From a virus, in IMG/VR virus record IMGVR_UViG_3300027963_005443: 64,000 nucleotides of DNA. One strand, given 5' to 3'. The notes below the pieces were generated by a model that worked only from the letters and a program-made list of their open reading frames with translations, searched no databases and had not been told where the DNA came from. A program made the position numbers and the translations under genes. Positions 40,750-64,000 of this stretch are shown here, in pieces; the stretch's first letter is position 1; every line of letters begins with the position of its first letter.

Positions 40750-43700
40750 TTATACGAAAGAAACCCAGAGAACTTTCAAACTTGGATTTGCTGCAGATGG
40801 AGTTTGAGTTCTTGTCAATGTTGGTGTCAAAGTTGGTGTGTTAGTAGATGTTCTTGTTAAAGTTGGTGTGTTAGTAGATGTTCTTGTTAAAGTTGGTGTG
40901 TTAGTAGATGTTCTTGTTAAAGTTGGTGTGTTAGTAGATGTTCTTGTTAAAGTTGGTGTGTTACTAGATGTTCTTGTTAAAGTTGGTGTGTTAGTCGGGT
41001 TATTTGATGTCGTGGTATTTGTTACAGTTGGTGTTAAGGTTGGTGTTAAGGTTGGGGTTGATGTCCCAGTTGGAGTCAAGGTTGGAGTATTTGTGAAAGT
41101 TGAAGTTGGCGTTTGTGTTAAAGCGGGATTTATTAAAGTAGATGTAGATGTCTTTGTGATTGTTGGAGTTGAAGTTAATGTAGAAGTATTGGTTGGGGCT
41201 GGTGCCTGTGTGGGGGTGGGAGTTAAAGTCTTGGTTGGGGTAATAGTCGGGGTTGGAGTAGGAGTGTTTGTTGCTAATAAAGCGCAATTATTCCAATTAA
41301 TTGTAGATGTAATAACAGAGCGAGAGGTGTTATGATCCCATAGAGTGCCTACCTGAATAAGGGCAGCAGTAACTCTAAATCGGTGATCTCCTAGAGCTTT
41401 ACTTATTTGAAAAGTGCGGGATACCCTGGGTATGGTGCCCAGATTGGGGCCACTATAAAGACTTGCAAAAAATGAATCTTTCTCAACCCAATTAGAGCCT
41501 GGGTCTTCGGCATTGTACATTGCTTCTATGACATAAACAGTCATCCAGTTAGGTATATTACACAAATAAGTTGGATATTCCCAAGAAATTGAAGCCAATA
41601 CTGATGAGGAAGTGTCTCCCGGGTTTACACATTCTATGGCTATGTTCTGTGGGATTTCCGGCAGACATAACGGAGAGATTGTTGTTGTCGTTGTTGTTGT
41701 TGGGGAAATAGTAGTAGTTGTCGTAGTAGAAGGAGAGACTGTTGTGGTTGGAATAGAGGTGGTTATTTCATCATATTCACAATCTATACTTAAAAATAAA
41801 CTACTAGGTATATCTTCTATACTATTTATAGAACAATAAGATTGCGGAGCAGGAGTTGTAGTTGTTGGTCTGGTCCAAGGATCCTCTGGTGAGCAGCCTG
41901 AGATTTTTCCATGAAATATTGGAAGATTAATTATTTCTTGTTGCGTGTAATATTCAGCAAATAACTTAATTTTAGAAACTCTATTGCCGATATTTTCAAC
42001 AGCGGTAATATCATCGTCTACAAACAACCATATATTATCATTCAACACTACATTGCCTACCGTGTCTGTAAATTCAAATTGTTTAATTTTATTTAAAAAT
42101 ACAAAAACATTTTTAGTGTTTTTGTTTCTGGTGATGATTAATTGGTTGTAGTCATTAACTTTGAGTTCGGTTTGACCTACATAACCTCCTGGCACATATG
42201 ATATATAAAGATTTGCTCCATTATCATATATATAAATTCCATTATCTGAAGATTTGCCTTTAAAATCTATTAATTTACCAAATGTTGTGTTGTCTGGCTC
42301 TGGTTTGAATACCAACTCGAGGGTGTATTCTTCCATGTTGCAAGAACATGGCATTATAGTTGGTGTTGGAGTTAAGCCAAACGTTCTTGTGAGAGTTGGA
42401 GTTGGATTTGGCCCCGATGACCTAGTTAGGGTTGGGGTATGGGTTTGAGTTTTTGTTAAAGTTGGAGTCGAAGTAAGTGTCGGAGTCGAAGTTGGAGTTT
42501 TTGTCAACCATCTTGTTGTTGACGGAGTCGGAGTTAGAGTTGGCGTTAAAGTTAGAGTAGAAGTAAGAGTTTTTGTTAAGGTTGGAGTTGAAGTAAGAGT
42601 TTTTGTTAAGGTTGGGGTTTTTGTTAAAGTTGGAGTCGAAGTAAGTGTAGGGGTTAAAGTAAGTGTTGGAGTTAAAGTAAGAGTAGAGGTTGAAGTTATA
42701 GTTTGAGTTAAAGTTAAGGTAGGAGTTGAGGTGGGCGTTGGAGTAAGTGTTGGAGTCGAAGTGAGTGTTTGAGTAAGTGTTGGAGTCGAAGTGAGTGTTT
42801 GAGTAAGTGTTGGAGTCGAAGTGAGTGTTTGAGTAAGTGTTGGAGTCGAAGTAAGCGTTCTTGTTAAATTGGGCGTAGAAGTAAGCGTTCTTGTTAAATT
42901 GGGCGTAGAAGTAAGCGTTCTTGTTAAAGTTGGAGTTAAAGTTGGAGTTGAAGTTGGAGTTGAAGTAAGTGTCGGGGTTGAAGTTAGAGTTTGAGTTAAA
43001 GTTAAGGTAGGAGTTGAGGTAGGTGTTGGAGTTGAAGTTAGTGTGGTAGTTGAAGTAAGCGTTGAAGTTGAAGTAAGCGTTGGAGTTGGAGTTAAAGTTG
43101 GAACTAAATTAGAACCACAAACCTCAATATTATCTATTGCAGAAAAACACTCTGCTGTTGGGCTCCCATTGCGAGGATCCCAAACTAATGAATTAGTTGG
43201 CGCTCGGAATACGACTCTTGTTGATGAAGAAGTTGCAGTAAATTGAAATGATTTACGCACCCATCCTAAACTTTCATAAGTATCGCCCGTAACTACATTG
43301 TCTATATTAAAAGTTCTCTTCAACATGCCATTTGGGCCAACCCCCGGAGAAATCACTGCCTCTAAAGATCTGGTTGGGTTTAAATCGTTGTAACCGGGTG
43401 TGCAACCCATATCAAAAGAACATGTATATGTATTCCCTGTAACTGTTGGTATTATTTGATACAAATAAGGCCTATTGGCAGAATACGCAAAACCAACAAA
43501 TCTATTATTTGATAACAAATTACTGCAATAGTTAAAAGAAAACATCTGGGCGTTGTTGTACAAATACCATGGGGGTGCCGCTTGAAATTCTGTTCTATTG
43601 TCATAACCAATATTGTTTACACATCTACCGTCCAAAGATGATGGCAAACTAAAATCTCCATTAACAATTAGATTCACACAAGGAACCAAGGTTTGAGTTG

Positions 43701-45021
43701 GAGTTTTTGTTAAAGTTGGAGTCAGGGTAAGTGTTTTTGTTAAAGTTGGCGTTAGGGTAAGTGCTCTAGTTAAACCTGGGGTTTCTGTTAAAGTTGGAGT
43801 AGGCTCAATAGTTGTTGTGGTGGTACTTGTTGTGGTAGTACTTGTTGTGGTAGTACACTCTGAATCTAATACGGTTATGATATCATTTACAAAACACTGA
43901 CTTAATACAACCTCACCTTCTGGACTTGTAATTCTGAACCAAGTTATTCCATCATGACAGCCGGTATGACGACAGTTGCCAGGACCAGTGGTTGTGGTTG
44001 TAGTTGTAGTTGTAGTCGTAGTTGTGGTTGTGGGTTCAATTGTAGTAGTGCAGACATTATCAGGTCCTGGGTCACAATTTATCCTAGAGTCATCACAGGA
44101 TTGATATTCTGAAAAAACTGCAGTACTACTTCCTGCTGGAGAGCAGCAAGGACACTTATAGCAAATCGGGTTACTTGGGTGGCCGGCTATACAAGTCGTT
44201 CGGCACCAACAACAGTCACCTTCCCAGTGACCAGTTCCAAAAAAATCATCATCTATTACAAAATAACAAGGACCTTGAGTTGTAGTAGTTGTTGTTGTAG
44301 TGGTTGTTGTTGTGGTTGTAGTTGTGGTAGAAATAGTGCACGTCGCAACATTCCCTGCAATTGCAGGTGGACCAGAAGACAACATGTCTACTCCCTGAAC
44401 GTCGGTACAACAACAACATTGTAAGAAAAATTCAAAAACTCCATCTTCTGCGACGGTGCCCCCTGGCAGTACTGACGACGAGATCTTATCACCAGTGACC
44501 TGGTTGGATCTACCTACTGGGCAATCATTATTTAAATTTACCTCCATGATCCAGTTATTATTAACATATAAATTAAAACGAGCTCTACTACAGGCATGAC
44601 CTCCAGGACAAGGACCATCAGTATCGCTATACATTGCTTCGACTAAATAACCGCTTAAATCGGGCAAGCCGAAGCACACCGGGGGAGGAGTTGTTGTAGT
44701 GCCAGGAGGAGGAACTACTATGCAAATCTCGTTAGAACAACTTCCAATGGGAGGGCAATCACAGGCGTCGATCTGGCTGCCCGCTCCGTAATGACAACAA
44801 TCCATTTTACCTAATGTATATCCAAAATAACATGAAGTGATGGGGTCTTGAATTCTTGCGTAGGCTTCCGGTCCAGCCAGCCATTCACAACAATTTAACA
44901 ATGGATCTGGGCACCATGCTCCACAATCAACATCTGAGTCACCTAAAGGCAAGGAAGCACAAGGAGATATTGTGGTTGTTACGTCTAACTTTTCTAGTTT
45001 TTTTTCAATTTCTTTTGACAT
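40750..45021 (-). CDS. 1423-aa modular surface protein: Cys-rich modules, DUF642-like, LamG-like and Fn3-like domains, long T/P linkers
   Basis: NLIVNGDFS...WVRKSFQFTATS (DUF642/CBM-like); YTLELVFK...YNQLIITRN (LamG); extensive PT repeats. Confidence 0.88.
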   Translation of the reverse strand: MSKEIEKKLEKLDVTTTISPCASLPLGDSDVDCGAWCPDPLLNCCEWLAGPEAYARIQDPITSCYFGYTLGKMDCCHYGAGSQIDACDCPPIGSCSNEICIVVPPPGTTTTPPPVCFGLPDLSGYLVEAMYSDTDGPCPGGHACSRARFNLYVNNNWIMEVNLNNDCPVGRSNQVTGDKISSSVLPGGTVAEDGVFEFFLQCCCCTDVQGVDMLSSGPPAIAGNVATCTISTTTTTTTTTTTTTTTTTQGPCYFVIDDDFFGTGHWEGDCCWCRTTCIAGHPSNPICYKCPCCSPAGSSTAVFSEYQSCDDSRINCDPGPDNVCTTTIEPTTTTTTTTTTTTTTTGPGNCRHTGCHDGITWFRITSPEGEVVLSQCFVNDIITVLDSECTTTTSTTTTSTTTTTIEPTPTLTETPGLTRALTLTPTLTKTLTLTPTLTKTPTQTLVPCVNLIVNGDFSLPSSLDGRCVNNIGYDNRTEFQAAPPWYLYNNAQMFSFNYCSNLLSNNRFVGFAYSANRPYLYQIIPTVTGNTYTCSFDMGCTPGYNDLNPTRSLEAVISPGVGPNGMLKRTFNIDNVVTGDTYESLGWVRKSFQFTATSSSTRVVFRAPTNSLVWDPRNGSPTAECFSAIDNIEVCGSNLVPTLTPTPTLTSTSTLTSTTTLTSTPTPTSTPTLTLTQTLTSTPTLTSTPTSTPTLTPTLTRTLTSTPNLTRTLTSTPNLTRTLTSTPTLTQTLTSTPTLTQTLTSTPTLTQTLTSTPTLTPTPTSTPTLTLTQTITSTSTLTLTPTLTLTPTLTSTPTLTKTPTLTKTLTSTPTLTKTLTSTLTLTPTLTPTPSTTRWLTKTPTSTPTLTSTPTLTKTQTHTPTLTRSSGPNPTPTLTRTFGLTPTPTIMPCSCNMEEYTLELVFKPEPDNTTFGKLIDFKGKSSDNGIYIYDNGANLYISYVPGGYVGQTELKVNDYNQLIITRNKNTKNVFVFLNKIKQFEFTDTVGNVVLNDNIWLFVDDDITAVENIGNRVSKIKLFAEYYTQQEIINLPIFHGKISGCSPEDPWTRPTTTTPAPQSYCSINSIEDIPSSLFLSIDCEYDEITTSIPTTTVSPSTTTTTTISPTTTTTTTISPLCLPEIPQNIAIECVNPGDTSSSVLASISWEYPTYLCNIPNWMTVYVIEAMYNAEDPGSNWVEKDSFFASLYSGPNLGTIPRVSRTFQISKALGDHRFRVTAALIQVGTLWDHNTSRSVITSTINWNNCALLATNTPTPTPTITPTKTLTPTPTQAPAPTNTSTLTSTPTITKTSTSTLINPALTQTPTSTFTNTPTLTPTGTSTPTLTPTLTPTVTNTTTSNNPTNTPTLTRTSSNTPTLTRTSTNTPTLTRTSTNTPTLTRTSTNTPTLTRTSTNTPTLTPTLTRTQTPSAANPSLKVLWVSFV
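40831..40995. repeat. 30-nt tandem repeat x5.5 (TPTLTRTSTN)
   Basis: agttggtgtgttagtagatgttcttgttaa repeated almost perfectly. Confidence 0.9.
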
Positions 45022-45101
45022 TATTTAATTACTTTTGGTAAAGTTATATATAATTAAACTAGTCGAAATTAATGTCTAATCACAAGATTGTATGTTTAAA
45101 G

Positions 45102-46208
45102 CTAAGGAGGACAATCTCCCAAGGATGCCGCACAATATACTTGACCTGGGCAACAAACCCAAGTAATTTCCGGACAGCAACCACAGTTGCCAGCGCCATC
45201 TGAGCAGCATTTATCTGTCAGGGGGTTGGAACAAGGAAAACCTCCGCAATCTTCAGTGGTACAACCTGAAGAAGAACTACAACAATCCATTTTAAAACAG
45301 ACATTAGTATTTTCAGTAGGACCTGGTATATTAACTGTGGCAAAAACCAAGTTATTTTTACATCTAACATCTTTTGCATAAATGTAAGGCGCTCCAGCGA
45401 TACTGGCTTTGGCTTCACAACAGTTAGTCTGATGGTCTAATGTTAATTTAAAGGTTTTGTCGCCATTGCTAAAAGTTTCTGATATTACAATGTCGGTAAT
45501 CAAAATATTACAACAACTACGATCACAATAACCCTCTAAAATATTAAGATCTGTGTATATTCTATTCTCCGCAGGGGGGTTCTGGTAGCCGTTTAAACCA
45601 CTAACCCAGTTTATTCTTAGAGCATCTACACAAACAAAATTATCGCAAGATTGACCCTTGGATCCACCTAGAAGACAACATCTTAATTTAGATCCCGCTG
45701 ATCCTAACATCATATCTGGATCTACAAGGGTGTAGAGAGTTTTTACTAGTGCTCCATTTGAAACATATTGACCATCTACCACAGAAGCAATCCCGCCAGA
45801 ATATAATTCATATTTTACTTTAATGAAGCCTATGTTTATTGCATCTTTCTCAGTTTTTTTTAAATTGTGACTCCATTGGGCTTTAGGAAGCAATAAAATA
45901 TTGTCGGCAGTTGGGAAATCACTTGTTATACTGTTGGGGCCACTTATACGAACAACAAAAGATTCTTTGCCAACACCTGTGTGGTCTCCAGCATATTCAA
46001 CATAATTGGCTAAATTATCGGTGCAAGCTCCAACCGGACCGATATAATCGGCACAAACTGAATTGATATCACTACTAGGGCAACCGGGTGGATAGAATAC
46101 ATTACTATTATCTGATACATCCGCAACCGTCAGTGTTGTATCTAGATCATTAATTCCGCTGGTGGTCCAATCAATTTCAACTATGATGTGATCAATAATA
46201 TTTGGCAT
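45102..46208 (-). CDS. Cys-rich putative surface protein with shared C-terminal CC module
   Basis: Ends CGGFPC...KCC..GAGNCGCCPE.TWVCCP...YCAASLGDCPP. Confidence 0.85.
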   Translation of the reverse strand: MPNIIDHIIVEIDWTTSGINDLDTTLTVADVSDNSNVFYPPGCPSSDINSVCADYIGPVGACTDNLANYVEYAGDHTGVGKESFVVRISGPNSITSDFPTADNILLLPKAQWSHNLKKTEKDAINIGFIKVKYELYSGGIASVVDGQYVSNGALVKTLYTLVDPDMMLGSAGSKLRCCLLGGSKGQSCDNFVCVDALRINWVSGLNGYQNPPAENRIYTDLNILEGYCDRSCCNILITDIVISETFSNGDKTFKLTLDHQTNCCEAKASIAGAPYIYAKDVRCKNNLVFATVNIPGPTENTNVCFKMDCCSSSSGCTTEDCGGFPCSNPLTDKCCSDGAGNCGCCPEITWVCCPGQVYCAASLGDCPP

Positions 46209-46253
46209 ATTTTATATATGCCTTATAATCGGGAAAGTTATAAGGATAAAAAA

Positions 46254-49200
46254 TCAATAACCAAAATATAAATTGCCTAAAACATCAAATTTTAATGCAC
46301 GATAGATACCAAAATTATCATTAATAACAATATTATTAGATAAATATGATGACCAAGAAACTCCGTCCCACTTAGCAACACGAGTATATAAACCTCCAGT
46401 ATTGGTGAAGTTTCCTGTAGCATAAATATTATTATTATATTCTGTGATTTCTAGGACGACGGAATTAAATCCGGCGCCCAAATTACTCCAAGATGTGCCA
46501 TTCCATTTAGCAATTCTATTGGCGATAACTCCTCCTGCTGACGTAAAGATTCCGCCAACATAAACATTATCATCTTTATCTACACACACTGAGTAGGCAG
46601 TGCCATTTAATCCACTTCCTAAATTGCTCCAGGATGTTCCGTTCCATTTAGCGATTCTATTAGAGCTAACACCCCCTATATTTGTAAAATTCCCACAAAC
46701 ATAAATATTATTTTCAGAATCTATAGCTATTGAATTAATGGTTGACGAAGCTGAGACCCCGCCCATTCCTAAATCAGACCAAGATGTTCCATCCCATCTA
46801 GCAATTCCGCTCGCACCTTGGTTTCCTGCTGTTCTAAAATTTCCAACAACATAAACGTTATCATTTTTATCAACAATCATGCATTTAATTGATTTTGTAC
46901 CATTAAGATCACCAGGAATTCCATCCCCAACATTAGTCCAAGAATATCCGTCCCATTTGACTATACAGGTTGAAATCCGTGGTGGTAAGGTCGTAGTCGT
47001 AGTTGTGGTTACTGGTGCAACTGGGGTTATTACACTTATACATCCGGTGCCGTAGGGGGAGCAGTAACGAGCAGTGATATATGATCCCACTCCAACGCTA
47101 TTCACAGCTGCAACTTCAAAAATATATCTGGTACCGTTTTGAAGTGAACTGATGGTCAATGAGCGAGATGAAGGGGGTGCTGCCACATAAGTCCACGTAC
47201 TTTCGGTTTCTACCTTATACCGGATACTATATTCTGTGATGGGCGACCCACCGTTCCACAAAGGGGTATACCAGCCAAGGAGCACATTGCCATTGCCTGG
47301 GGTGCCATCGACATCGTTTTGTTCCATAACTGGGGCCGTGGGTCGAACACAAGGAACGGAGCAATACTCGCCAATAACTGGGCAATCCCAAATTGCATTA
47401 ATTCCATTAGTACTATATATCTCCGAACCACAAGCTCGCATATAACTACTGTAGAACCCAGAATCGCAAATACAACCAGAACTACAGCTACTTGATATCA
47501 ACATAAACTCATTCCTTGGCGGGTCCTGGCATATATATTCGCATGTTCCCGTGCAGGGCCCAGTTGTGGTTGTTGTTGTGGGCTCAGTGGTTGTGGTAGT
47601 TGTGGTTGTGGTAGTGGTAGTTGTGGTAGTTGTGGTAGTTGTGGTAGTGGTAGTTGTGGGTTCAGTTGTGGTTGTAGTGGCAGTATTTGCACAACCAATT
47701 CTATCGCAACCAAGACTAAAGGCCCCACCAACATAAACACTGCCGATAGAGTCAAAACATACCGATTTAACTGAGTTGACACCAAAACCTGCAGCTGGAT
47801 TATTGTCATTGCTATTAAAAAGGCCTAAACCACTCCAAGACAATCCATCCCATTTGGCAAAATTAACTACTTCTCCATAGGGAAGATTCATCGTAAACTT
47901 TCCGACAATATAAAGATTGCCTGATAAATCCACAGTAATATCTTCAATAATAGACCCGGAGACAAAGCTTTCGCCAATATTATTCACAACATTACCATTT
48001 ATTTTTGCCAAATGATCAATAGGAATATTATTGACAATAGTTGGTGTTGGAGTAGGCGTTGGATCTGGTACATATTTAAATCTATCCAAATTAATATCTG
48101 TTAGTTGATATCCTCCTCCCAAATCTAACATGGTTTGATTCACAGCAGATTTTACTTGTGGTATTAATATGCAAAACAAACTTAGTGGCATGCCAATAAA
48201 TATTGGCTCATTATCTATAATCAAAAAATATGGACTTCCAGAATCTAAACTTCTTATTGATTGTCCTATTCTTTCAAAACCTATCTGATTTTGTTCTCCA
48301 GTTCTGGCAGCACCAAAATAAGCAGGATTTGAAACAAATGGATTCATTGCTGACAAAAATATGCTTTTATCTTGATTGGAATGAATTACAAATATTTTAT
48401 TATTTAAAATTGCTTTATTTATTCCGTCCAGGTCTGGGAGCAGCCATGTAAAACTAGTGTCCATTCTATTTCTATAATTATCTGGAAGTACTTTTGCAAA
48501 AGTTATTGTCTCTGGCACATCTGAATCTAAAACTCCTATAGTAAAATCACCTATGCCAACTTCTTTTGTATCAACCAACGTTCTAGTGACAACTACATTA
48601 TCTTTTGTTATAAATCTCATTTCGCTGCCATTGGGCGGATAGTATCGAAAGTGAGCACAAAAAATAACATGTCTTGGGCTGATCAGTGTTCCGTGAGTGT
48701 GATTGCTACTTTGAACTAAAGTATTTGGAGCATAAGGAGGAGATGGTAGTCTTAATGTCTGATGCATATTCCAGGGAGAACAACAAGTTAAATCTATATC
48801 ATACGCCCAACAATTTGGATTTCTTATAAAATTTTTAGTAGCATCACTATCTGTGTATCCTCCATAATTAACATTATTTTGATAAAAATCTAAAAATAAA
48901 TCTAATCCATATAGACCATCATCCTGAACTCCGTCAAAATATCTTGATTTAGAGTCTTTTCCCACCAACATACTTCTAATTTGATTAGTGGCATAATTAT
49001 TGAGTAAAGGCAAATCAGTGGGTGTAAGCGTAGGGGTTGGCGTTGGCGTGGAAGTAGGCGTTAGTGTGGAAGTGGATGTTGGAGTAGAAGTTGGCGTTAA
49101 TGTTAAACTAGCCGAGGGGGTGAGAGTAGGCGTAGGGGTCGGAGTTAATGTAGAAGTGGAAGTGGGAGTAGGGGTGGGTTCTTGATTATGATCAGTAATA

Positions 49201-52200
49201 TTACTAACTTTTCGCAATACTGAGTAGAAAGGACCATGTGATACTATTAAATACCTGCCGTTATAAGGAGTATAAGAAGAAGTAGATCCAGATGGAACGT
49301 CTTTTTCAGCATCTGAAATAAAGATATATGAATTAACATTAAATCCGTATATGCTTAAATTCACAAGATTTATACTTCCGTCCCAAAGACACATGCTGAT
49401 ACCGACCTGATAATCATTGGCGTTCTGAATTTGGCAACTTAAGAAAATATTACCAAAAGTACTTGCTCCTACCGGTTTTGCCTGACATATATTGGATCCA
49501 AACCCTCCTATAAATTCATTTGCAGAAGTGCCGCATTGAGGTGGATCATTAGCACAAATATCATCAGTTATAACTGCTCGGCAATTTACAGAGCCGCTCA
49601 CACAAACAAATGGATCTGGGGCTACGGTTGTGGTGGTTGGAGCAACAGTGGTTGTGGTTGGAGCAACAGTTGTAGTTGTGGTTGGAACAACAGTTGTTGT
49701 GGTGTTTGTGTTATTAGACTTTATACCCAGACTATCCCCAATACCGGCAATTGCGGTGTGCCATGTATCCGAACCTACCTGGGCAATGCTGCCCCAGTAG
49801 GGGGCTGAGGGGTCACCCTTTCCAAGTTGTCCACTCCCGTTATGTCCCCAAGCCCATAGTGTTCCATTAGTTTTTAAGGCAACAGTGTGGGTTGCCCCAG
49901 CACTTATTGATTCCCAATCATTATCAGAACTTATTTGAACAGGAGAAGTTTTATCGACCCAGGTCCCGTCTCCAAGTTGGTGCAATCCATTATATCCCCA
50001 AGCCCATAGTGTTCTATTAGTTTTCAGGGCAATGGTAAAATTTCCTCCAACACTTATTGATTTCCAATCATTGTCGGAGCCTATTAAAGTAGGGATATTT
50101 AATGTTGATCTAGGCGGTCCGACACCAAGTTGACCAAATTCATTATATCCCCAAGCCCATAGTGTTCCATCATTTTTTAGGGCAATGGTAGAAAACTCTC
50201 CCGTACTTATTAATTTCCAATCACTGTCGGAGCCTATTTGGATGGGCGAGAGTTGGTTGGGAGAAGATGCTCCATTCCCGAGCTGACAGAAGCGACTCTC
50301 TCCCCAAGCCCATAGTGTTCCATTGATTTTTAGGGCAAAAGCAGATTCTCCTCCAGCACTTATTGATTCCCAATCATTATCAGAACCTATTTGGACAGGA
50401 GAATTCTTGTTGATCCCGGTTCCGTCTCCAAGCTGACCCTTTAGATTATTTCCCCAGGCCCATAGTGTTCTATCAGTTTTTATTGCAATGGTAAAATTAG
50501 ATCCAACACTTATTGATTCCCAATCACCGTCAGAACCTATTTGGATGGGTGATAATTTATCAACAACTGTTCCATCTCCAAGTTGGCCAAATTCATTATA
50601 TCCCCAAGCCCATAGTGTTCCATTAGTTTTTAGGGCCATGGTGTGTGATGCCGGGTTTGTCCCAGAATTAGCAATTATAGATTTCCAATCATCATCAGAA
50701 CCTATTTGGATGGGTGATGATTTAGCTAAAACTGTTCCGTCTCCAAGTTGTCCCTTCCCGTTATATCCCCAAGCCCATAGTGTTCCGGATACAATCGCAG
50801 GAGCAATTGTTGTTGTTGTTGTTGTTGTTGTAGTGGGGCAACTATATTTTAGTCCATAACTGGTCCAGTCCGATGTGGCTATAGAAGAATAGCCCTCGCC
50901 AATTTTTATTGGCGTCGAGGATTGACGAGATGTCCCTGCTGCTTTGAAGTTGCCTCCCCAAGCATATACGTCTCCGTTTGTTCGCAGAGCCAAAACAAAA
51001 TCCTCGCCAGTGCTAACCTCTAGCCAATCACCTTCAATTATTTGAAAGTCTCCAACAACATCACCTGTGACGTACCAAACATGTAACTCTCCATTATTTT
51101 TAATCGCCGCCAATGACGGGGTGTATTGTTGCTGGGTGTATCCATTCCACCCATGTCCGGGAGCCATTACTTTATAACCCTCTCCCAATTTTGTTTTTAT
51201 AGAAAAATTATAAAACTCATCATAGGCTATCAGATATAAATCACCATTGGATTTTAATGCAATTCCACCTCCATCTCCACTGTTTACCGCAACTATATCT
51301 TCATCTATTTTAGTTGGAATATAATTATTTGGCCCAAACTTTGGGCTGTTTATGGAGTTATACCACCAACTATATAAATCTCCATTGGACTTTATTGCAA
51401 AAACAAATTGTTCGCCAGCTGAAACCTTTTTGTAGCCTTCACCTATTTTGGTTGGAGTGTTATAATCTAGTTTGTTATTGCCAACAACATCTCCCCATGC
51501 ATATAAATCACCATTGCTTTTTATACCAAAAGAAGCATACGATCCCCCACTCACTTCTATATAATCTTCTCCGATTTTAACTGGGTTAAACGAGTCAGTT
51601 CTGGTGTTGTTGCCAATCTCTCCATATAAATTTTTGCCCCAAGAATATAAATCTCCATTAGACTTTATTGCTAAGAAATGACTGTGATTCTCACCACTTG
51701 ATAATTTAGCAAATCCATTTCCAACCAATTTATGACGAACTTGGCCACCGGAAAACCCAGGGGTTTCAAATTGTGTTCCATCACCAATTTGTCCAAACAA
51801 ATTATTTCCCCATGCATATAAATAAATATTACAATCATTGGGATTGACGGTTGTTGTTACGGGAGCTATTATAGAACGAGGAATATCTATAAAAACAGAA
51901 ATAATATTACAATCATCTGTTACTGAATTACAACTACATGAAGAAGGCAAAGACTGAGTTATACAATCCTTTATTTGGGATGCTGCAAAAATTTGTAATT
52001 TTGTATTTTGTCCACTTTTATACCCGCCATAAACAAGGGTATCGTTATATTCATCCCAAAGATCTCTTCCTATTTCATCATAAAGGGTAAGAGTGCCATC
52101 GGAATTCATTTTATAAACATCGCCGCAAATTGTAAAAAGATATATATCTTCGCCTGCTCCACCCAGACCTGTGACTCCGCCATAGCCAGCACGGAAAGAG

Positions 52201-53183
52201 TTGCAACCAATTAATGATGTTGTTATATCATAGTTTTTTTCCAACAAACCAGATTCATAATCATACACTAGTATGTTCCAAGATGGGCTTGTAATCATGC
52301 AACCGCACGAAACTATTAGCTTTCCATTACTTGTAAGGCATATATCAGCAGCACTACTTAAGCTGCAGTTTGTTGGTAGTTCGGCACGCACGGTCACAGA
52401 ACTTGTATTGTTTGTGTCAACTCCAACTATGATTCTGCCACCGCCTTCTGGGTATAGGGGATCCTCTGCTTTGGTTGTAATGATAGTCTCATCTCCATCG
52501 CAACTCATTCCAAAATTAGGCACAGAATCAGATAAAATTAATTGCCTTTTATATGACATTGTGAACGGTTCAAAGGACTCGATATCCCACTCAGTTATTA
52601 TTGAACCATCACAATATCCCCCTATGCCATGTTCAAAATCTGGTGGGTGGACACCATTGACGGGTCCAATCCAAAATTTGTTTTTAGTATGAGCTATATC
52701 GATACAGTTAGGATTTGTTGGAAAATAATCTCCAAGAATAGGGTCTCCCCATACATCGTGACTTATTCTAGTTGATTTTTTAGAAGCTATATCATATTTA
52801 TACAAGGCTAAATTAGGAAGAACCGTCACTCCGTATGGAGCATGAGGACCTATGGCTGCACCCAAATACAACATGCTAGAATCTGCGCATGGGGGTGATG
52901 TTGTAGTGGTTGTAGTGGTTGTGGTTGGTTCGCAGGGATCAATAATTTGAGGGTCACAATTTAGGCGAGAATTTTCACAAGATTCAGAGTTTTGCCAAAC
53001 TGTGACGAGGGTATCAAGGGGAGCGCAACAAGGACACTTATAGCAAGCCCCGTTGTTTGGGTCGCCAACCATGCACCTTGGACGACAGTAACAACAACCG
53101 TCCCCCTCCCAATGACCAATTCCAAAAAAAGGATCATCTATTACAAAATAACAAGGCTCTTGAGTGGTCGTTGTATTTGGCAT
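46254..53183 (-). CDS. 2309-aa mosaic protein: RCC1 repeats, trypsin-like domain, Fn3, beta-propeller, poly-Thr linkers
   Basis: [16 protein letters not shown]1 repeats in two clusters; [13 protein letters not shown] / GDFTIG / LDSGSP; W..P...GGSPIT.Y (Fn3); WDG.SW..LG.G repeats. Confidence 0.92.
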
Positions 53184-55434: not shown

Positions 55435-55443
55435 GAGTTCATT

Positions 55444-56478: not shown

Positions 56479-56505
56479 TGAAGAAAATTTTGGCTAAATC
56501 TTTTT

Positions 56506-56581: not shown

Positions 56582-56637
56582 CGGCCTATTAAAAAATCGA
56601 TTCTTTAGACATTGCCCAGATCTATTCCGTGGTTTGC

Positions 56638-56844
56638 TCAATCCACTCGGAGATCATCGCTTAGATCGCTAGATAAATTTTTATTTTCTAATTCAGATCT
56701 GATTACGGTGACTTCTTGAGGAGCATCTATACCTATACGAACTTTATTGCGGTTGTCAATCCTGACAACGGTGATTTTGATATCGTCGGCACCTGGGCTC
56801 TTCAGAACAATTGTCTCATCCTTTTTTCTACTGAGAACTAGCAT
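56638..56844 (-). CDS. csrA: Carbon storage regulator (CsrA/RsmA)
   Basis: MLVLSRKKDETI...ITVV...KVRIGIDAP.EVTVIRSEL. Confidence 0.92.
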   Translation of the reverse strand: MLVLSRKKDETIVLKSPGADDIKITVVRIDNRNKVRIGIDAPQEVTVIRSELENKNLSSDLSDDLRVD

Positions 56845-56941
56845 ATAATTCCTTTCATCTTAATGTGTAATCTTCCACAATCAATATAGTGTGTCTTTCT
56901 CAAAAATTTGACAAAAAACAAAAAATATAGATAATATAATC

Positions 56942-57784
56942 ATGGAAAATATCAAAATCTGGCGACTGCATCCAAGAGGCTGCCGAGTTGAAAAAGCAGA
57001 AAAAACTTGCTTGGGAACTGCTAACTCTGCCGCTGTACGTTGGTGTGGTCCTTACACAAACGCAAATAAATATGGATTTTGGATATATCCTCCAATAGAT
57101 TTCAATTTTATTTATAAAAATGGAAAATTCGAATATGAATACCTAGAAGATTACGGAGATGATGACCACGAAATTATAAAATCACTAATAAAGCCGTGCG
57201 ACAACTCTAAGCCAGATAAATGGCTTCCTGAAGATGGCAGAACCAAATTCACTTGGGGAATGGTCGAGCCAAATGTCATACAAATTTGGACAGGGTTGAT
57301 TTTTCAAACTCCTCCAGGATGGTGCTTACACATCAGAAGTCCTATTAACTTTCAACACACAAAATACCGTGTAATGGAAGCTGTTTTAGAAACTGATTGG
57401 ATGCAATATGACATATGGATAAATTTAGTTTGTAATCAAGATGGAAAATTTGAAATAAATAAAAATATTCCAATTGCTCAATTGTTGCCGGTAAGAAGAG
57501 AAAGTTTTGAAGAGAAATGCGAAATTCAAGAGGAAAATATAAACCGAAATTCAAGAGAAAGTAATAAAGTGTTTGAATATTATCTGCACTATAATAAAAA
57601 AAAGTTCGAAAATGGCGGAAAACAACTTCTAACAGCTGATGGATCTTTGACGAAAGACTCTGGTACTTATCATAAAGAAAAAAATAAAATTTTAGATAAA
57701 GAAATGGAGCCAAAATGCCCTTTTCAACAATCTAAAAATTTTATAGGAAGACTATTATCAAAAAAAATTCCCCCTCCCGGTTAA
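56942..57784 (+). CDS. DUF6065-like protein
   Basis: CGPY..AN..GFWIY.P, FQTPPGW.L..RSP.N, LETDW, PIAQLLPV.R. Confidence 0.65.
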   Translation: MENIKIWRLHPRGCRVEKAEKTCLGTANSAAVRWCGPYTNANKYGFWIYPPIDFNFIYKNGKFEYEYLEDYGDDDHEIIKSLIKPCDNSKPDKWLPEDGRTKFTWGMVEPNVIQIWTGLIFQTPPGWCLHIRSPINFQHTKYRVMEAVLETDWMQYDIWINLVCNQDGKFEINKNIPIAQLLPVRRESFEEKCEIQEENINRNSRESNKVFEYYLHYNKKKFENGGKQLLTADGSLTKDSGTYHKEKNKILDKEMEPKCPFQQSKNFIGRLLSKKIPPPG

Positions 57785-57797
57785 GAGAGGGGGAATT
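57766..57797. terminator. Hairpin between convergent genes
   Basis: aattccccctc/gagggggaatt 11-bp inverted repeat. Confidence 0.7.
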
Positions 57798-57805
57798 GTC
57801 ATAAA

Positions 57806-58261
57806 CTAAAATAGCTGCTGGCTGCAGACTGTTATTGCTGGGACATATGCGCCACTAATTCCCGAGCAGAGCGAATTTGTTGCTCTACATGTAGGATGAA
57901 ATAGTCTAGAGCGTGTATATGTGGTTGATGGGTTCGTTGGATCTTTTTTGCTCAAGCATTTAAATTGTGAATATATTTTCACATATTTTAATTCAAGAGC
58001 AGTTTTTTCCATTACTGGTCGGCCGTTGGCGCCGACAATAATTAAACCATTATCATCCATTTTTGGCATATCAACTATCTTTGAGACGTCCATAACTTCA
58101 TATTTAATATTATCTACTTCATTATCGCCTATAAAATATTGTATAGATTTGGCAACCAACTTATTAGAAGCCCAATCCATAGTCATATCTTTTCTGGCTA
58201 CATAGTATGCGTTGTAGCTATATGAGTAATCATAACCAACTATATATAGATTAGAATCCAT
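57806..58261 (-). CDS. Hypothetical protein
   Basis: Strong SD aggaggt upstream. Confidence 0.65.
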   Translation of the reverse strand: MDSNLYIVGYDYSYSYNAYYVARKDMTMDWASNKLVAKSIQYFIGDNEVDNIKYEVMDVSKIVDMPKMDDNGLIIVGANGRPVMEKTALELKYVKIYSQFKCLSKKDPTNPSTTYTRSRLFHPTCRATNSLCSGISGAYVPAITVCSQQLF

Positions 58262-58383
58262 TCATACCTCCTTGTTAAGGTTGGCATCATTGCCAACTAT
58301 TAGTATATATTAAACTTTAATGGTAATTTTCTATTATCTTTACAACTATATATTTTAATTAAACATAAAAAAGAAAAAAATTC

Positions 58384-59931
58384 ATGAGCAATAATACATG
58401 TAATTATCTAACTAAAATTATTAATATTCCCGGAGACTGGCGATCCGTATCTTGTTCTTCCAATGGCACGAAAATAGTGTGTATTAAACGGTATGATGGT
58501 TTATACCGCAGCATAGATTCTGGTAGTACATGGGTGAAAAAAATCAATTCCCCAGGTGATGGATTTTCTCATATTTCTGGCGACGGCCAAATAGGAATTT
58601 TTATATCACGCTACACATACAATGATATATATGTATCTCAGGATAGCGGACACACCTGGGTCAATAAACAACCGGGTCTCCCATTACAGGAATTTACTCC
58701 CACAGAATCTAGAATAATTTGCTCATCATATAGTGGAGATACTATTTTTATAGTGCCTGGTCTTTATGCGAGTTTAACAGGTTATTTTTACAAAAGCACA
58801 GATAAAGGAGATACTTGGACAAAAATTACATCGGGATTAGAGCCCTTTACATCCATATCTTGCTCAAGTGATGGTAATACAGTATTGGCTACAGGAAAAT
58901 CCAATGTTTATATAAGTAACGATTCTGGGCTGTCCTGGAGTGTACGCACGTTACCCGTGGCATTAAACGAGCAAGCGGATTGTGAACAATTATATGCTTG
59001 CTGTATGTCAAGCAATGGCACCTCTATGATGGCTTCAATCAGAGAAAAATTCAATGACACCCCATGTAACAGTCAAACAGTTTATGGGTCATTTATTAGT
59101 AGAAACGGCGGGTCTACCTGGGTCGGAGTGGACATAATAGCATCGCAATTAGCTTGTTCAGATGACTTTAGCACAATTTTAGCCGGAGCGGCTGGTTCGT
59201 ATTCATATAGAGTTAGTAAAGATGGGGGAAATTATTGGGCAAATATAATTGATCAAAATAATCCTGATTCTTTCAGGTATATTAGCGGGGTAGATTTAAA
59301 TAGCACAGGAGATAAGCTTTATATATCAGCTAGTGGCGCCAACTCTGTGTATGATAATGAGTTTATATACTCGGTAAATTGCGAAACTTTGCCTCCTATA
59401 CCAGGCACTACAACTACAGCAGCACCTACTACAGCAGCACCTACTACAGCAGCACCTACTACAGCAGCACCTACTACAGCAGCACCTACTACAGCAGCAC
59501 CTACTACAGCAAAAGAAATATGCTTCAGGGTAATTTGTCCAGATAACGATTGCGTATCAAATGTAGTTTGCATACCGGTAAACACTGCCCCGGAGGCACC
59601 GATTGATCACTCTTGTGATTGCATAGATTGTGGAACATGCCCAGAAGCGCCTCCCTTTGTTACTACAGTAGCACCTACAACTACAGTAGCACCTACAACT
59701 ACAGTAGCACCTACAACTACAGTAGCACCTACAACTACAGTAGCACCTACAACTACAGTAGCACCTACAACATCTCCGCCTGCTGGATGTTGTGAGGGGG
59801 CTTGCAACCCAATGGAGAAATGCTGTTCAGATGGCTTTGGCAACTGCGATTGCTGCCCAGAAATTAACTGGGTTTGCTGTCCAGGAAACTTGAATTGTGC
59901 AGCAACCTTGGCCGATTGCCCTCCTCAGTGA
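58384..59931 (+). CDS. BNR/Asp-box propeller protein + TTAAP/TTVAP linkers + shared C-terminal CC module
   Basis: S.DSG.TW repeats; terminal KCCSDGFGNCDCCPEINWVCCP...CAATLADCP. Confidence 0.88.
   Translation: MSNNTCNYLTKIINIPGDWRSVSCSSNGTKIVCIKRYDGLYRSIDSGSTWVKKINSPGDGFSHISGDGQIGIFISRYTYNDIYVSQDSGHTWVNKQPGLPLQEFTPTESRIICSSYSGDTIFIVPGLYASLTGYFYKSTDKGDTWTKITSGLEPFTSISCSSDGNTVLATGKSNVYISNDSGLSWSVRTLPVALNEQADCEQLYACCMSSNGTSMMASIREKFNDTPCNSQTVYGSFISRNGGSTWVGVDIIASQLACSDDFSTILAGAAGSYSYRVSKDGGNYWANIIDQNNPDSFRYISGVDLNSTGDKLYISASGANSVYDNEFIYSVNCETLPPIPGTTTTAAPTTAAPTTAAPTTAAPTTAAPTTAAPTTAKEICFRVICPDNDCVSNVVCIPVNTAPEAPIDHSCDCIDCGTCPEAPPFVTTVAPTTTVAPTTTVAPTTTVAPTTTVAPTTTVAPTTSPPAGCCEGACNPMEKCCSDGFGNCDCCPEINWVCCPGNLNCAATLADCPPQ
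59413..59511. repeat. 15-nt perfect tandem repeat x6+ (TTAAP)
   Basis: actacagcagcacct units. Confidence 0.92.
59662..59769. repeat. 18-nt perfect tandem repeat x6 (TTVAPT)
   Basis: actacagtagcacctaca units. Confidence 0.92.
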
Positions 59932-59966
59932 TCCCTTAGTTTTATCTTGACAAGTATATATAAAAT

Positions 59967-61892
59967 ATGCCAAATGATGCTAATTTTAAAATATACGGAT
60001 TTTGCAATAAATTAAAGATACACTGCATGGAACTTACAGATGAGGGGTTTATAGCAGGAGGACAAAATGCAATAAAAAGAAAGTATTATTGGAATAGTGA
60101 AAAAGGTTTTGTTTACGGGGATGGAACAAGTGTGCAAAACCCTCCTTGGGCAATAAATAACAATAAAATAAGATTAAATTTTGAAGATGATATAAATTGT
60201 TCCAAATACAATAAGCATAGACAAAAAGCAACATGCAGAATCCACATCAATCCTTTTGAACAAAAAAATATAAACTTATCTTGGATTGGAATGGCGGAAC
60301 AAAACTCTTCAGATAACGAATATATGGAATTAAGGCTAGATGGACAAAAAATTGCTAGTTCTGGTTCTGTTGGGGATGGCAAAGGTTGTTCCTCTATGGT
60401 TTCTGTGGTTTCCAAAGATTCAGAAGGAAACATAATATCACCTTCGGCAGTTTTAACATTAGCAGAAGGTCTGAGTGTAATAGACATACTTTTAGATACA
60501 AAAAACGAATTCTTCCACACAAATTCATATTATGAATTTACAATGGATCCATTTACTTGTATGTGTGATCTAGAAATAGATCAAGTAACACATACGGGAG
60601 AAATGTCAACTGGTGGCGCAGAAAATTTCATAATAGAAATGATCAATAACAAAAATTGCTGCAGCAGAGTTCAGTATAAATTAGATTGCGGAGATTGGAT
60701 TGATTATCCTATCTGCTCGGTCACAGAAACCACAACCACAACCACAATTGGTCCAGCTTGCCCCGGTAATTGTGATAATAACTTAATACTGAACGGGGAT
60801 TTTGAATTAGATGCTCCAAATATGGACCTGGGAACGGCTCAACATTGGGTAGTGGACAATGTGGATGTAACATCCGTAGAGTTATCGGGTCCCAATAAAA
60901 ATGTTTGGATAGATTTAAATGCATGCTCTCCAGGTTCTATGGAACAATCTTTTTCAACTATTATTGGTCAACAATATATATTGTATTTCAATATGGCAGG
61001 AAATAGCGCATGCACCCCCTCTAATCCGTGCGACGAAAGAACAGATAATATAAATAATGTTAAAACTTTCAAGGTTTCTGTTGCTGGCGTGGTTCAAAAC
61101 TATACATTTGATACCAGTAGTACTCCGAATTTAATCCCAGGTAAAATAGCAGATTATTCAGGGATGGGATGGACTTCAGAATCCTTGATATTTACTGCGG
61201 TGGAGTCTACTACAACCTTGAGATTTGAAAGCACCTGCAGCTCTTGCGGATGCTTTGGTGCAGCAATAGATTGCGTAGAAGTTTGTACTATAGCGGCAAC
61301 TACAACATTGGCTCCTTGTGTAAATTTAATTACCAATGGAGACTTTAGTTCGCCATCATCTTTAAATGGTAGATGCACAAACAGTATAGGCGTAGATAAT
61401 AGACAAGACTTAAATGGAATTCTTCAAGTAGCCCCTCCTTGGTATCTTTGGCCGAACGGCGACGTTTTTTCTTTTTATTATTGCAATAATTCATTGCCAA
61501 ACAATAGATTTGTTAGTTTAGGATTATCAGTTAATAGGGCTTATTTATCACAAACTATATCAACAGTTATAGGAGCCACATATACATGCTCCTTTGATAT
61601 GGGGTGCTCACCCGGATACAACGGCTTAAACTTAACATCTAGGTCGTTGGACGTGTTTGTTTCACCAGGAGTTGATCTAAAGAATACTTTTAATATAGAT
61701 AATGTAGTCACAGGCAATACTTACGAAAGTTTAGGATGGATGCGTAAATCATTTCAATTTACTGCGACTTCTTCCTTAACCATGATTACGTTCCGGACAC
61801 CAAATGATTCATTGAATGCTATTCCAAACGGTAATCCTGGGGTCGAGTGTTTGTCTGTGATAGATAACGTGGAGGTTTGCCTAGAAACTTGA
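59967..61892 (+). CDS. Surface protein with two DUF642-like (galactose-binding-fold) domains
   Basis: NLILNGDFE...SFSTIIGQQY.L.F.MAGN...GW....L.FTA...T.L.F...IDCVEV, twice. Confidence 0.88.
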   Translation: MPNDANFKIYGFCNKLKIHCMELTDEGFIAGGQNAIKRKYYWNSEKGFVYGDGTSVQNPPWAINNNKIRLNFEDDINCSKYNKHRQKATCRIHINPFEQKNINLSWIGMAEQNSSDNEYMELRLDGQKIASSGSVGDGKGCSSMVSVVSKDSEGNIISPSAVLTLAEGLSVIDILLDTKNEFFHTNSYYEFTMDPFTCMCDLEIDQVTHTGEMSTGGAENFIIEMINNKNCCSRVQYKLDCGDWIDYPICSVTETTTTTTIGPACPGNCDNNLILNGDFELDAPNMDLGTAQHWVVDNVDVTSVELSGPNKNVWIDLNACSPGSMEQSFSTIIGQQYILYFNMAGNSACTPSNPCDERTDNINNVKTFKVSVAGVVQNYTFDTSSTPNLIPGKIADYSGMGWTSESLIFTAVESTTTLRFESTCSSCGCFGAAIDCVEVCTIAATTTLAPCVNLITNGDFSSPSSLNGRCTNSIGVDNRQDLNGILQVAPPWYLWPNGDVFSFYYCNNSLPNNRFVSLGLSVNRAYLSQTISTVIGATYTCSFDMGCSPGYNGLNLTSRSLDVFVSPGVDLKNTFNIDNVVTGNTYESLGWMRKSFQFTATSSLTMITFRTPNDSLNAIPNGNPGVECLSVIDNVEVCLET

Positions 61893-61905
61893 CTAAAATA
61901 TAAAA

Positions 61906-64000
61906 ATGATAAATAAACACTTCGTAATAAACCAAATAGAATTAGATGATACAAATTTTGATGCACCAATAACAAAATTGGATGTACCAACTACATCACC
62001 ACCAGACACACCAACTACACCACCACCCAGGTGTCCTAGTTTTTGGATAAACTCAGGTGTAAACGCAGAAGTATTTTATAAGAAAAACTCCGGTCCTTGT
62101 CCTGGCGGGCATCGTTGCGACAGAGCTGTTTTCGATTTATATGTAAATGATTCATTGGTAAAAGAAAACATAAATTTAAATAATTTATCAGATGGAGGAG
62201 ATCGAACAAGCGGAGTCTTTTCAATTCCCACAGATATACTTTATTGGGATATCAATTGCGAATGCAGCTTCTATTTTAACCTAAAATGTAAGTTATCTTG
62301 TGATTGCCATAAAGGCTTGGCTTGGATTATAATTAAAAATTCAAGCGGTAAAGTTTTATATGATAACTGTATACCAAATGATGAGTATGTATTTATAGGG
62401 ACTTCTTGTAAATCTAATCAAAAATTGCCAGATATTAGTTGCTACAAATGTTCAGATTGCGAATTATTCCAAACACCAACTTCAAATATCGAAGATACTT
62501 GCGAATCTTTGGGTTACTTCTCAAACTTTACTGATTGTAATAATGTTTGCACTACAACTACAACCACAACTACAACCACCACGGCGGAACCGCCTTGGTC
62601 GCCCAGATGCAATAGTTTAATACTAAATGGAGGTTTTGACCAAGTTATTGGAGGTGGGGTTGGCCCCGATGCTACACACTGGTCGCTACAGAATGTATTG
62701 TTTCAATCAATACTTCCTATGCAGCCTGGGGGAATTTTTGTGAATCTAAATGGAGGAGATACTAAAACCGGATGTTCTCCTGGGTACATAGAGCAATCTT
62801 TTTCCACCGTAGTAGGCAATCAATATACATTGTATTTCAATATGTCTGCCGCCATAAATACATCTAATTTTCCTACAAATGAATATAAAGGACTCACGGT
62901 TACTGTGGCCGGGGTTACCGAACCTTACGAGTTTGACACCAACTTGCAACAAACGCCTACCTATCAGGGAATGGGATGGGTTTCAAAATCTTTAATATTT
63001 ACTGCAGTGGATGCTACTACGACCTTAAGATTTGAAAGCACATATAACGGCTGCTGGGGACCTGCGATAGATCGTGTTGAAGTTTGCGAGAATACAACAA
63101 CTACAACTACTACAACTACTACAACTACTACAACTACTACAACTACTACAACTACTACAACTACTACAACTACAACTACAACCACTACAACCACTACAAC
63201 TACTACAACTACAACTACTACAACTACTACAACTACACCTTCGCCTGGTTTCAGGCTAAAAGATTTTGGAAATAAAAGCCAATTGTTATCTCAAACAGAA
63301 GTAGAAGATGAAATTAAAATGGAGTTTACAAATTTTTATGATATTTACGACAATAAAAGAAGAATTCAGAGAGGGCTGACTCAGCCTAGTTATTGGGCCA
63401 TAAACAGATCTAAAAATTTAGCGGATCCATTAATAGAACTTTCGTCTGGGGCCAATGATACCGACAATAATCTTTATAGAGCAGACAGCATTTATGAAGT
63501 TCAAGGACCGTATATCGGAGATGATGTGAGCGGCCTTATTTATATGGGCGATCGTAGGCCAGGGGATACTGCCTCTCTTAATTTTTCTTCATCAAATAAA
63601 TTTTCTGCTGATCGTGTTCCAAAAATTAATATTGTCGAAAATAGAATAAAAGTGTCTACGGCAAATAATTCAAGAGAATATGAAAGAGATAGTAACATAT
63701 TAGAAATGTCTAATTTAGAAATAGTAGCAGAAAGTAAAAAAATAAAGAAAGTCTTAAATCCATCAAAACTTAATATTGTTACAGCAGGAGATAGTACTTT
63801 AGAAAAAACATCAACAGATTCAGGTTATTATCTGGCTTCGACAATAGACATATATACTATTGATCAAATCAATTTATCGAATCCTCCAAAGTTTTCAATA
63901 AGTGGAGCAGGTGTGTTATATTTCGGTAACTCACAAATAGGTAGCGGTTCATTAAAAATTACAAGTTCGGGCATTAGTAAAGATGTAGATTATGGCCAAC
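61906..64000 (+). CDS. Partial (runs off window end) surface protein: GPCPGGH domain, DUF642-like domain, 48-residue poly-Thr; not in ORF track
   Basis: Manual translation open from ATG 61906 to the window end. Confidence 0.85.
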   Translation, partial: MINKHFVINQIELDDTNFDAPITKLDVPTTSPPDTPTTPPPRCPSFWINSGVNAEVFYKKNSGPCPGGHRCDRAVFDLYVNDSLVKENINLNNLSDGGDRTSGVFSIPTDILYWDINCECSFYFNLKCKLSCDCHKGLAWIIIKNSSGKVLYDNCIPNDEYVFIGTSCKSNQKLPDISCYKCSDCELFQTPTSNIEDTCESLGYFSNFTDCNNVCTTTTTTTTTTTAEPPWSPRCNSLILNGGFDQVIGGGVGPDATHWSLQNVLFQSILPMQPGGIFVNLNGGDTKTGCSPGYIEQSFSTVVGNQYTLYFNMSAAINTSNFPTNEYKGLTVTVAGVTEPYEFDTNLQQTPTYQGMGWVSKSLIFTAVDATTTLRFESTYNGCWGPAIDRVEVCENTTTTTTTTTTTTTTTTTTTTTTTTTTTTTTTTTTTTTTTTTTTTTTTTPSPGFRLKDFGNKSQLLSQTEVEDEIKMEFTNFYDIYDNKRRIQRGLTQPSYWAINRSKNLADPLIELSSGANDTDNNLYRADSIYEVQGPYIGDDVSGLIYMGDRRPGDTASLNFSSSNKFSADRVPKINIVENRIKVSTANNSREYERDSNILEMSNLEIVAESKKIKKVLNPSKLNIVTAGDSTLEKTSTDSGYYLASTIDIYTIDQINLSNPPKFSISGAGVLYFGNSQIGSGSLKITSSGISKDVDYGQ
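63094..63237. repeat. 48 consecutive Thr codons (mainly aca-act-act)
   Basis: All codons ACN, counted in frame. Confidence 0.95.

Follow-up and report, generated by a model that had tools for sequence, protein, structure and literature searches.

The 64,000-nucleotide (nt) stretch analyzed here (the window; IMG/VR virus record IMGVR_UViG_3300027963_005443) belongs to an uncultured phage and encodes, at 40.7-64 kb, a group of large Cys-rich proteins, here named P1 to P6 and P8. Their genes evolve in units of whole modules, which are gained, lost, exchanged, fused and split. These proteins are organized as beads on a string and are probably extracellular. An all-against-all BLASTP comparison with low-complexity masking revealed a common pool of modules, i.e., a Cys-rich module A, a beta-sandwich domain with the motif GPCPGGH (domain B), DUF642, a C-terminal Cys-rich module D, FN3, an RCC1 propeller and others, and a catalogue of tracts showed that poly-Thr or Thr/Pro spacers lie between them. 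In P1, module A is nested within domain B and bounded on both sides by poly-Thr. The reading that we favor, with a probability of roughly 0.55, is that the tracts of Thr codons promote the module exchanges. It is made plausible by linker scars at N-termini, by a recent joint that falls within a tract, by the instability of tract lengths and by the preservation of codon phase between tracts. The shuffling is more extensive than was indicated by a preliminary description made from the letters of the window, with genes fused and split at linkers and with a start cassette as a second type of border.

Module A (78 amino acids, aa) forms the N-terminus of the 2309-aa protein P2 and thereby also occurs alone, as an autonomous unit. 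The preliminary description had stated that it recurs in the 1423-aa protein P1, that poly-Thr flanks it there on both sides and that it splits a GPCPGGH domain that is contiguous in two paralogues; all of this was borne out, with coordinates that were right to within a few bases. The two copies are 60% identical (P1 residues 249-318 and P2 residues 8-78; BLASTP E 7e-25) and their DNA is 77% identical over 155 nt (44138-44289 and 53020-53174), the DNA match extending into the four Thr codons that follow ATG CCA AAT of P2. In P2, these four Thr codons (53163-53174) precede the module and nine follow it (52899-52925). In P1, the codon listing shows 17 Thr codons ahead of A and TTTIEP with 15 Thr codons behind it, and the two flanks share an exact match of 17 nt in direct orientation and in codon phase. 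A three-way alignment of domain B from P1, P3 and P4 shows that the F.L.C strand and the GCH.G..W strand are separated in P1 by a whole 150-aa block, composed of about 30 loop residues, the first Thr run, A, the second flank and about 10 more residues. At this position the loop comprises 5 residues in P4 and about 17 in P3.

Structure prediction is in agreement with this anatomy. The AlphaFold model of domain B of P4 is an eight-stranded beta-sandwich with a predicted local distance difference test score (pLDDT) of 85.6. In the model of P1, the N-terminal part of B reaches a pLDDT of 82-94 and the C-terminal part 83-95, with the strand order found in P4. Both models match the same single-domain templates, such as 2xhh_A (Z 5.1 over range 10..277 of P1; Z 5.5 for P4), and since they align to the same single-domain sandwiches, the nesting is consistent at the level of predicted structure. 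The nesting of A in B is thus real at the sequence level, and the split domain B of P1 is predicted to form one sandwich. The A insert itself was modeled with a pLDDT below 50 from an alignment of two sequences only. A small Cys-rich sub-module with the pattern CYKC/CWEC..C was observed beside B in P4 (62440-62553, +) and in P3 (53850-54000, -). Module A may be composite, with this sub-module as its second half (about 44044-44160, -), as suggested by a weak sequence similarity.

Domain B is a genuine and widespread beta-sandwich family for which Pfam has no model: Pfam searches matched no family in P1 or P3, nor in the part of P4 that is B, and a profile search of 1.84 billion representatives revealed 207 relatives at E<=1e-3, 70 of them at E<=1e-10. 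According to the models, the fold weakly resembles CBM- and PLAT-type sandwiches at Z scores of 5-6 (best Z 5.9 with 7sf2_A, 5.5 with the CBM 2xhh_A and 5.1 with the PLAT-type 1olp_A); Foldseek returned weak rows for PLAT, p53, CBM35 and malectin, all with E >0.05, and B is accordingly assigned to no known fold family. For a survey of loop lengths, 164 instances of B were re-aligned to the profile. The domain is contiguous in most of them, and large inserts cluster at a single site immediately ahead of the GCH strand. This loop has a median length of 17 aa and reaches at least 74 aa in eight proteins, the longest being that of P1 with 158 aa. Among the members with long loops, Thr runs on both sides were found only in P1 and in its relative P0005. 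The recurrence of inserts at this site across the family shows the loop to be structurally permissive, and the Thr-flanked form is special to this phage lineage. As a separate observation, an unrelated large virus-like contig (L002:5510-11101) encodes proteins of >1800 aa with Pro/Thr and Ser/Pro linkers and a contiguous B; a Cys-containing module of about 65 aa also occurs in them three times in tandem.

Further evidence stems from relatives, for which one metagenome scan yielded four informative loci, among them L001, L003 and L004. P0005 (770 aa), encoded at L001, contains a domain B that is 57% identical to that of P1 and carries an insert in the same loop (L001:4030-4203). This insert comprises 58 aa with eight Cys residues and is flanked by runs of five and three Thr. 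An alignment with MAFFT hinted at a few Cys and Phe-Gly positions in common with module A; BLAST detected no similarity between the two, and homology of the P0005 insert to A is therefore treated as undetectable. P0005 is 96% identical to the protein P0164. The insert differs at 14 of 58 positions, compared with 16 of 712 elsewhere, i.e., it holds 14 of all 30 differences (odds ratio 13.8, Fisher P 2e-9), and every cysteine is kept. The concentration of differences together with the retained Cys residues indicates that the slot holds a fast-evolving, disulfide-framed element, and at the sequence level this pattern is what would be expected of a specificity determinant. A strong concentration of substitutions in a 58-aa cargo between two strains, and a cargo that differs between relatives, could also arise if a dedicated system of programmed diversification, either a mutagenic one of the retroelement type or a site-specific cassette switch, targeted the slot and neighboring genes. 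We regard this as highly improbable. The strain L003, which is 97% identical to the window over 59413-63997, keeps the module order of the window over 4.6 kb (L003:1-4565), the cargo differences include replacements of module size in addition to point changes, and no reverse transcriptase, invertase or integrase was found in Pfam scans of 24 larger open reading frames (ORFs) of the window, a scan for template repeats not having been made.

Module order is not fixed among relatives, a question that the preliminary description had raised, and it differs from the window in L001, in L004 and in the proteins P0155 and P0006. L001 is syntenic with the window at 75-88% nt identity, and the modules of four window genes are spread there over three genes. 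An identity of 88% extends from the upstream region across the GMP reductase gene and as far as the start codon of whatever gene lies at the position of P3. This gene encodes P0005, in which a Gly-rich N-domain is followed by a P8-like module, the P1-type B with its loop insert, a Thr-rich linker and the first two modules of P3. The second gene consists of two pieces of P2, and the third holds P1 residues 825-1329 between two domains that are missing from the window. In the window, P3 itself starts with ATG, CCT and the complete linker that joins B to the next module in P0005. In L004 (76% nt identity), the orthologue of P5 stops after the first DUF642 and lacks the short Thr linker and the second DUF642, the missing module being the DUF642 copy closest to that of P1. 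The L004 orthologue of P4 consists of B, directly followed by poly-Thr and then by an unrelated C-terminal domain, and P0006 has a P4-type B behind a different N-domain. The paralogous modules of P1 and P5 lie on opposite strands, so that an inversion or an exchange between genomes is needed to account for them.

At closer range, the window and L003 differ by six indels, four of which fall in runs of Thr codons: ACA twice, ACAACC once and a TTTVAP repeat unit once. As regards the module layout, only the lengths of the tracts change at this level of identity. In the same comparison, an 11-nt indel at the stop codon of P6 (59923) alters its C-terminus, and a 5-aa difference was observed at the start of module D. 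The differences in order are fixed between assemblies, even in a strain that is 98% identical in the body of P2, and there is no sign that switching goes on inside a population. Scanned against IMG/VR, P0005 and P0155 returned distant RCC1 loci or nothing, and no P1 orthologue was returned with a query made of B plus A, for which poly-Thr words probably swamped the list of candidates. No close relative of the window was found among the deposited phages searched.

A recent event is seen in P0155 (1486 aa, on a 323,267-base-pair contig), which is 98% identical to residues 87-1328 of P2 and identical over the first ~300 residues past the joint. Its N-terminus is a 229-aa paralogue of the N-domain of P8 (72% identical), which takes the place of MPN, the four Thr and module A. 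Since the same strain also keeps a true P8 orthologue (98%), this N-domain is not a mis-joined P8. Both versions start with MPN after the start cassette, and identity resumes inside the poly-Thr tract, which defines the cassette as the left border of the replacement and poly-Thr as the right one. P0155 ends four residues past the last shared module, exactly where the Thr/Pro linker of P2 starts, beyond which P2 continues for 980 more residues. Gene 2 of L001 ends at the same place. As both relatives stop after the module at P2 residues ~1287-1332, P2 resembles a fusion of two genes across the Thr/Pro linker.

The start cassette was found before P2, P5 and P8, i.e., three matches versus 0.17 expected, and related forms occur at L004:570-600 and L001:6215-6235. 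When the P3/P2 and P6/P5 junctions are compared, the 46 nt that separate the stop codon of module D from the following ATG hardly differ, whereas the coding DNA on either side is only about 75% identical. By its sequence the element resembles a late-promoter or start cassette that moves together with D. A split of one gene into P2 and P3 by a stop codon was considered and rejected, as D is C-terminal in all three of its carriers and the intergenic cassette is conserved.

That the breakpoints are related to Thr-codon tracts, as had been suspected, became apparent when 22 homology junctions were listed, which provide 35 junction sides beyond which the protein goes on. Of these sides, 25 are at most 10 aa away from a Thr-rich tract, versus 9.2 expected at random positions in the same proteins (reached in 0 of 200,000 simulations), a null that ignores the need for joints to fall between folded modules and therefore shows where the joints are, not why. 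One further side adjoins a Thr/Ser/Pro linker that the tract definition missed. Linker scars directly follow the start codons of P2, P3 and of genes 2 and 3 of L001. The tracts compared (runs of at least 8 Thr codons) mix ACA, ACT and ACC codons, with pairwise exact matches of 5-23 nt (median 14). Among the 12 longest, all shared k-mers of at least 6 nt are in the same codon phase, so that any join of co-oriented tracts keeps the reading frame. Of the proposal that ACN tracts serve as recombination joints, the microhomology (including the 17 nt between the flanks of A) and the position of most joints stand; causation does not follow from them.

Most of these data are also explained by selection alone. 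Exchange of the ordinary illegitimate or homologous type could occur anywhere, with the survivors being those whose joints lie between folded modules, and the Thr tracts would then be flexible, probably glycosylated spacers with no role as recombination substrates. We consider this possible, though somewhat unlikely, and several observations that fit it weigh against a promoting role of the tracts. About 10 junction sides lie in Cys-rich sequence without a Thr tract, among them the joint between P8-like and P1-like sequence in P0005, P8 residue 235 and P2 residue 414. Six long pre-GCH loops are Cys-rich elaborations of 74-113 aa in the same loop of B without Thr flanks. Exact matches between tracts are short at a median of 14 nt, and nested domains are common in general, with insertions in 20% of multidomain proteins (PMC13114784). 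Furthermore, the crossover between P0155 and P2 was located at the protein level, A nested in B is known from P1 of the window alone, and no relatives of module A outside this genome were found in an IMG/VR pattern scan, a word-index search of longer proteins and the ESM Atlas. No PHROG structural-protein match supports a virion location of the modular proteins, and all sequences are metagenome assemblies, possibly chimeric at low-complexity repeats. A mere filter on survivors does not account well for linker scars that directly follow start codons, where there is nothing for a spacer to hold apart, nor for a 98% identical strain pair in which identity resumes inside the tract itself. The unstable tract lengths between strains point in the same direction, as does the fact that every tract-to-tract join is in frame, which yields more viable products.

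The assembly origin leads to another explanation, by which some or all of the alternative architectures are contigs made chimeric by short-read assembly at shared low-complexity ACN repeats. The joints do coincide with repeats, where assemblers err, and P0155 is alone in its cluster, on only two contigs. We nevertheless judge an artefact to be improbable: a cluster member that occurs on 26 contigs, one of them 329,799 base pairs long, has the architecture of P0005, and the locus of P0005 has an insert at the same loop as P1; P8, the closest copy that the window offers for a mis-join, shares only 72% identity with the N-domain of P0155; exact matches of at most 23 nt are short for the final k-mers of assembly; and the nested A is distinct from the P2 copy at the nt level, with in-frame joins on both sides.

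If the Thr-codon tracts promote the exchanges, the following mechanism can be proposed. The ACN tracts are imperfect three-base repeats, and co-oriented pairs would share in-phase matches of ~10-20 nt, at which short-homology recombination or replication slippage would always create an in-frame linker-to-linker join, a kind of join that folding would tolerate. The spacers would thus have two roles, a structural one, as probably glycosylated stalks, and that of de facto joints for recombination. Joints of the second type lie in the conserved promoter/start cassette (TATATAAAATATG CCA AAT). The pre-GCH loop of B, tolerant of inserts throughout the family, has gained Thr runs on both sides in this lineage and behaves as a display slot for Cys-rich cargo, which is fast-evolving and not the same in different relatives. 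A bolder version, which we put forward as speculative and regard as unlikely, is that the loop is a dedicated cassette slot in which short-homology recombination between the two in-phase Thr-codon runs swaps or excises Cys-rich mini-domains in frame, with the cargo conferring specificity, and that the Thr tracts form a genome-wide, recombinase-independent 'in-frame splice grammar' for phage surface proteins.

The coordinates of the modular genes, their modules and the joints are compiled in Table 1. The window has a G+C content of ~36% and carries phage-type genes, namely CobS/CobT-like ATPases, DNA and RNA ligases, GMP reductase and glycosyl- and sulfotransferases (Pfam scans). The DUF642 copy of P1 (residues 446-635) was recognized solely by its 65% aa identity to P5 residues 449-638 (BLASTP; 71.5% nt identity to 61297-61879). 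Further copies are found at P5 272-440 and P4 236-394 (BLASTP), and Pfam DUF642 (PF04862) matches P4 with 42.3 bits and P5 with 67.7 bits at a cut-off of 27. The C-terminal extension of P2 spans ~980 aa with FN3 and propeller repeats, and FN3 is common to P2 and two M43-peptidase proteins (BLASTP). The latter (32079-33992, - and 34079-35884, -) are paralogues; each has a metallopeptidase motif of the M43 type, linkers of Thr/Pro and, at its C-terminus, an FN3. These FN3 domains are 86% identical to each other and related to that of P2. A protease-like protein (39369-40736, -; phrog_20754) adjoins P1 directly downstream, and an ORF of 432 aa and similar size follows P4 in L003 (L003:5518-6816); both may be candidate processing enzymes for the modular proteins. 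The modules recognized by Pfam are all of the binding type (DUF642, FN3, RCC1 and BNR-like propellers). The low-complexity Thr/Pro spacers set between globular modules are a feature of mucin-like, O-glycosylated linkers. We infer a virion location and ligand binding for the modular proteins as well as glycosylation of their Thr runs.

Table 1. Positions of the modular genes, their modules and the joint elements in the window.
Feature	Position	Strand	Description
P1	40750..45021	-	1423 aa (ORF list, translation, module map); Cys-rich N-terminus, B with nested A, DUF642-like, long Thr/Pro tract, two more modules, Thr/Pro tail
Module A in P1	44044..44277	-	residues 249-326; Cys-rich PCYFVIDD module
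Left slot flank in P1	44278..44328	-	consecutive Thr codons, ACA/ACT/ACC mix
Right slot flank in P1	43987..44043	-	TTTIEP and Thr codons
B, N-terminal part in P1	44326..44679	-	residues 115-232; GPCPGGH motif, five strands
B, C-terminal part in P1	about 43855..43986	-	GCH.G..W strand and two further strands
DUF642-like module of P1	43117..43686	-	closest copy is the second DUF642 of P5
P8	45102-46208	-	368 aa
Module D paralogue in P8	45105-45269	-	
Start cassette before P8	46206-46221	-	one mismatch
P2	46254..53183	-	2309 aa; MPN, four Thr, A, poly-Thr, body with RCC1 propeller, Thr/Pro linker, C-terminal extension
P2 residues ~1287-1332	49200-49325	-	last module in relatives (comparison with P0155 and L001 gene 2)
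Module A in P2	52929..53162	-	residues 8-85, N-terminal
Start cassette before P2	53181..53196	-	GTATATATAAAATATG then CCA AAT (MPN); alignments
P3	53211..54947	-	578 aa; complete 20-aa Thr-rich linker directly after ATG
Module D of P3	53214..53372	-	C-terminal, Cys-rich (BLASTP, blastn, alignment)
Contiguous B in P3	53442..53834	-	alignment
P6	58384-59931	+	515 aa
Module D paralogue in P6	59791-59928	+	
Start cassette before P5	59954-59969	+	alignments
P5	59967..61892	+	641 aa; two DUF642 modules
Second DUF642 of P5	61311-61880	+	missing from the L004 orthologue
P4	61906..63999	+	continues past the window end (strain L003: 1010 aa); B, small Cys module (CYKC), 11 Thr, DUF642, 48 Thr, C-terminal region
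Contiguous B in P4	62029..62415	+	alignment; AlphaFold model

The case combines features of phage adhesin mosaicism, start cassettes, Pro-Thr linkers and domain insertion and represents a variation of a known kind; a literature search found no publication on shuffling at Thr linkers. In the T-even adhesins gp37/gp38, conserved glycine-rich motifs separate hypervariable segments, and exchanges occur within or near these motifs (Tetart et al., 1996, 1998, as cited in PMC3157838). Similarly, variable segments are bounded here by short sequences common to many genes and phages, chimeras arise by recombination at the shared sequences, and what varies is a loop carried by a conserved core. In contrast to the T-even case, the shared sequences are low-complexity Thr-codon runs that double as interdomain spacers and not structural core motifs, whole folded modules are exchanged, and the proteins are known from sequence alone. 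In T4-type phages, PeSL, small mobile regulatory cassettes that contain promoters, bring about the shuffling of modules (Arbiol et al., 2010; PMC2839356). In analogy, a short conserved cassette is repeated here before several genes and lies at the left border of a replacement between near-identical strains, and the swapped genes all begin with the same cassette and MPN codons. The cassette described here differs from PeSL in that it is putative as a promoter or terminator and belongs, along with the first codons, to the border that is exchanged, and no mini-circles are known for it. In CenA and Cex, secreted glycanases of Cellulomonas fimi, globular binding and catalytic modules are reportedly joined by a Pro-Thr box, with an order that differs on either side of the linker. 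As in these enzymes ('Sequence conservation and region shuffling', Warren et al., 1986, cited in PMC8209791), the modules are set on Thr/Pro low-complexity linkers and the same modules occur in different order around the linker; unlike in CenA/Cex, the genes belong to a phage, the tracts are pure poly-Thr of up to 48 codons, many more modules take part, and gene fusion and fission at linkers as well as one nested case are observed. Domain insertions, which are found in a fifth of multidomain proteins (PMC13114784), resemble the nesting of A in that a module interrupts its host chain at a surface loop and the host still folds, which is predicted here. The insert in P1 is special in being bounded by long homopolymeric linkers, in having other cargo in the same loop of a related phage, and in occurring also as the terminal module of a neighboring gene.

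It is known that phages diversify their host-range proteins by exchanging modules, and sequences that make such exchange frequent and safe for the reading frame are known for only a few model phages. The present work adds a natural strain pair that is 98% identical in the shared protein and differs by a whole N-terminal module, with a promoter/start cassette and poly-Thr as borders, and it defines a widespread, so far unmodeled beta-sandwich domain with 207 relatives and a tolerant insertion loop. If it is true that the tracts promote the joins, this would explain why many poly-Thr proteins are found in very large environmental phages, would provide a simple rule to predict recombination joints in metagenomic phage genomes, and would point to a natural design for in-frame module swapping and loop display. 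If the bolder version were true as well, the in-frame splice grammar would be an analogue, in prokaryotic viruses, of exon shuffling at phase-compatible introns.

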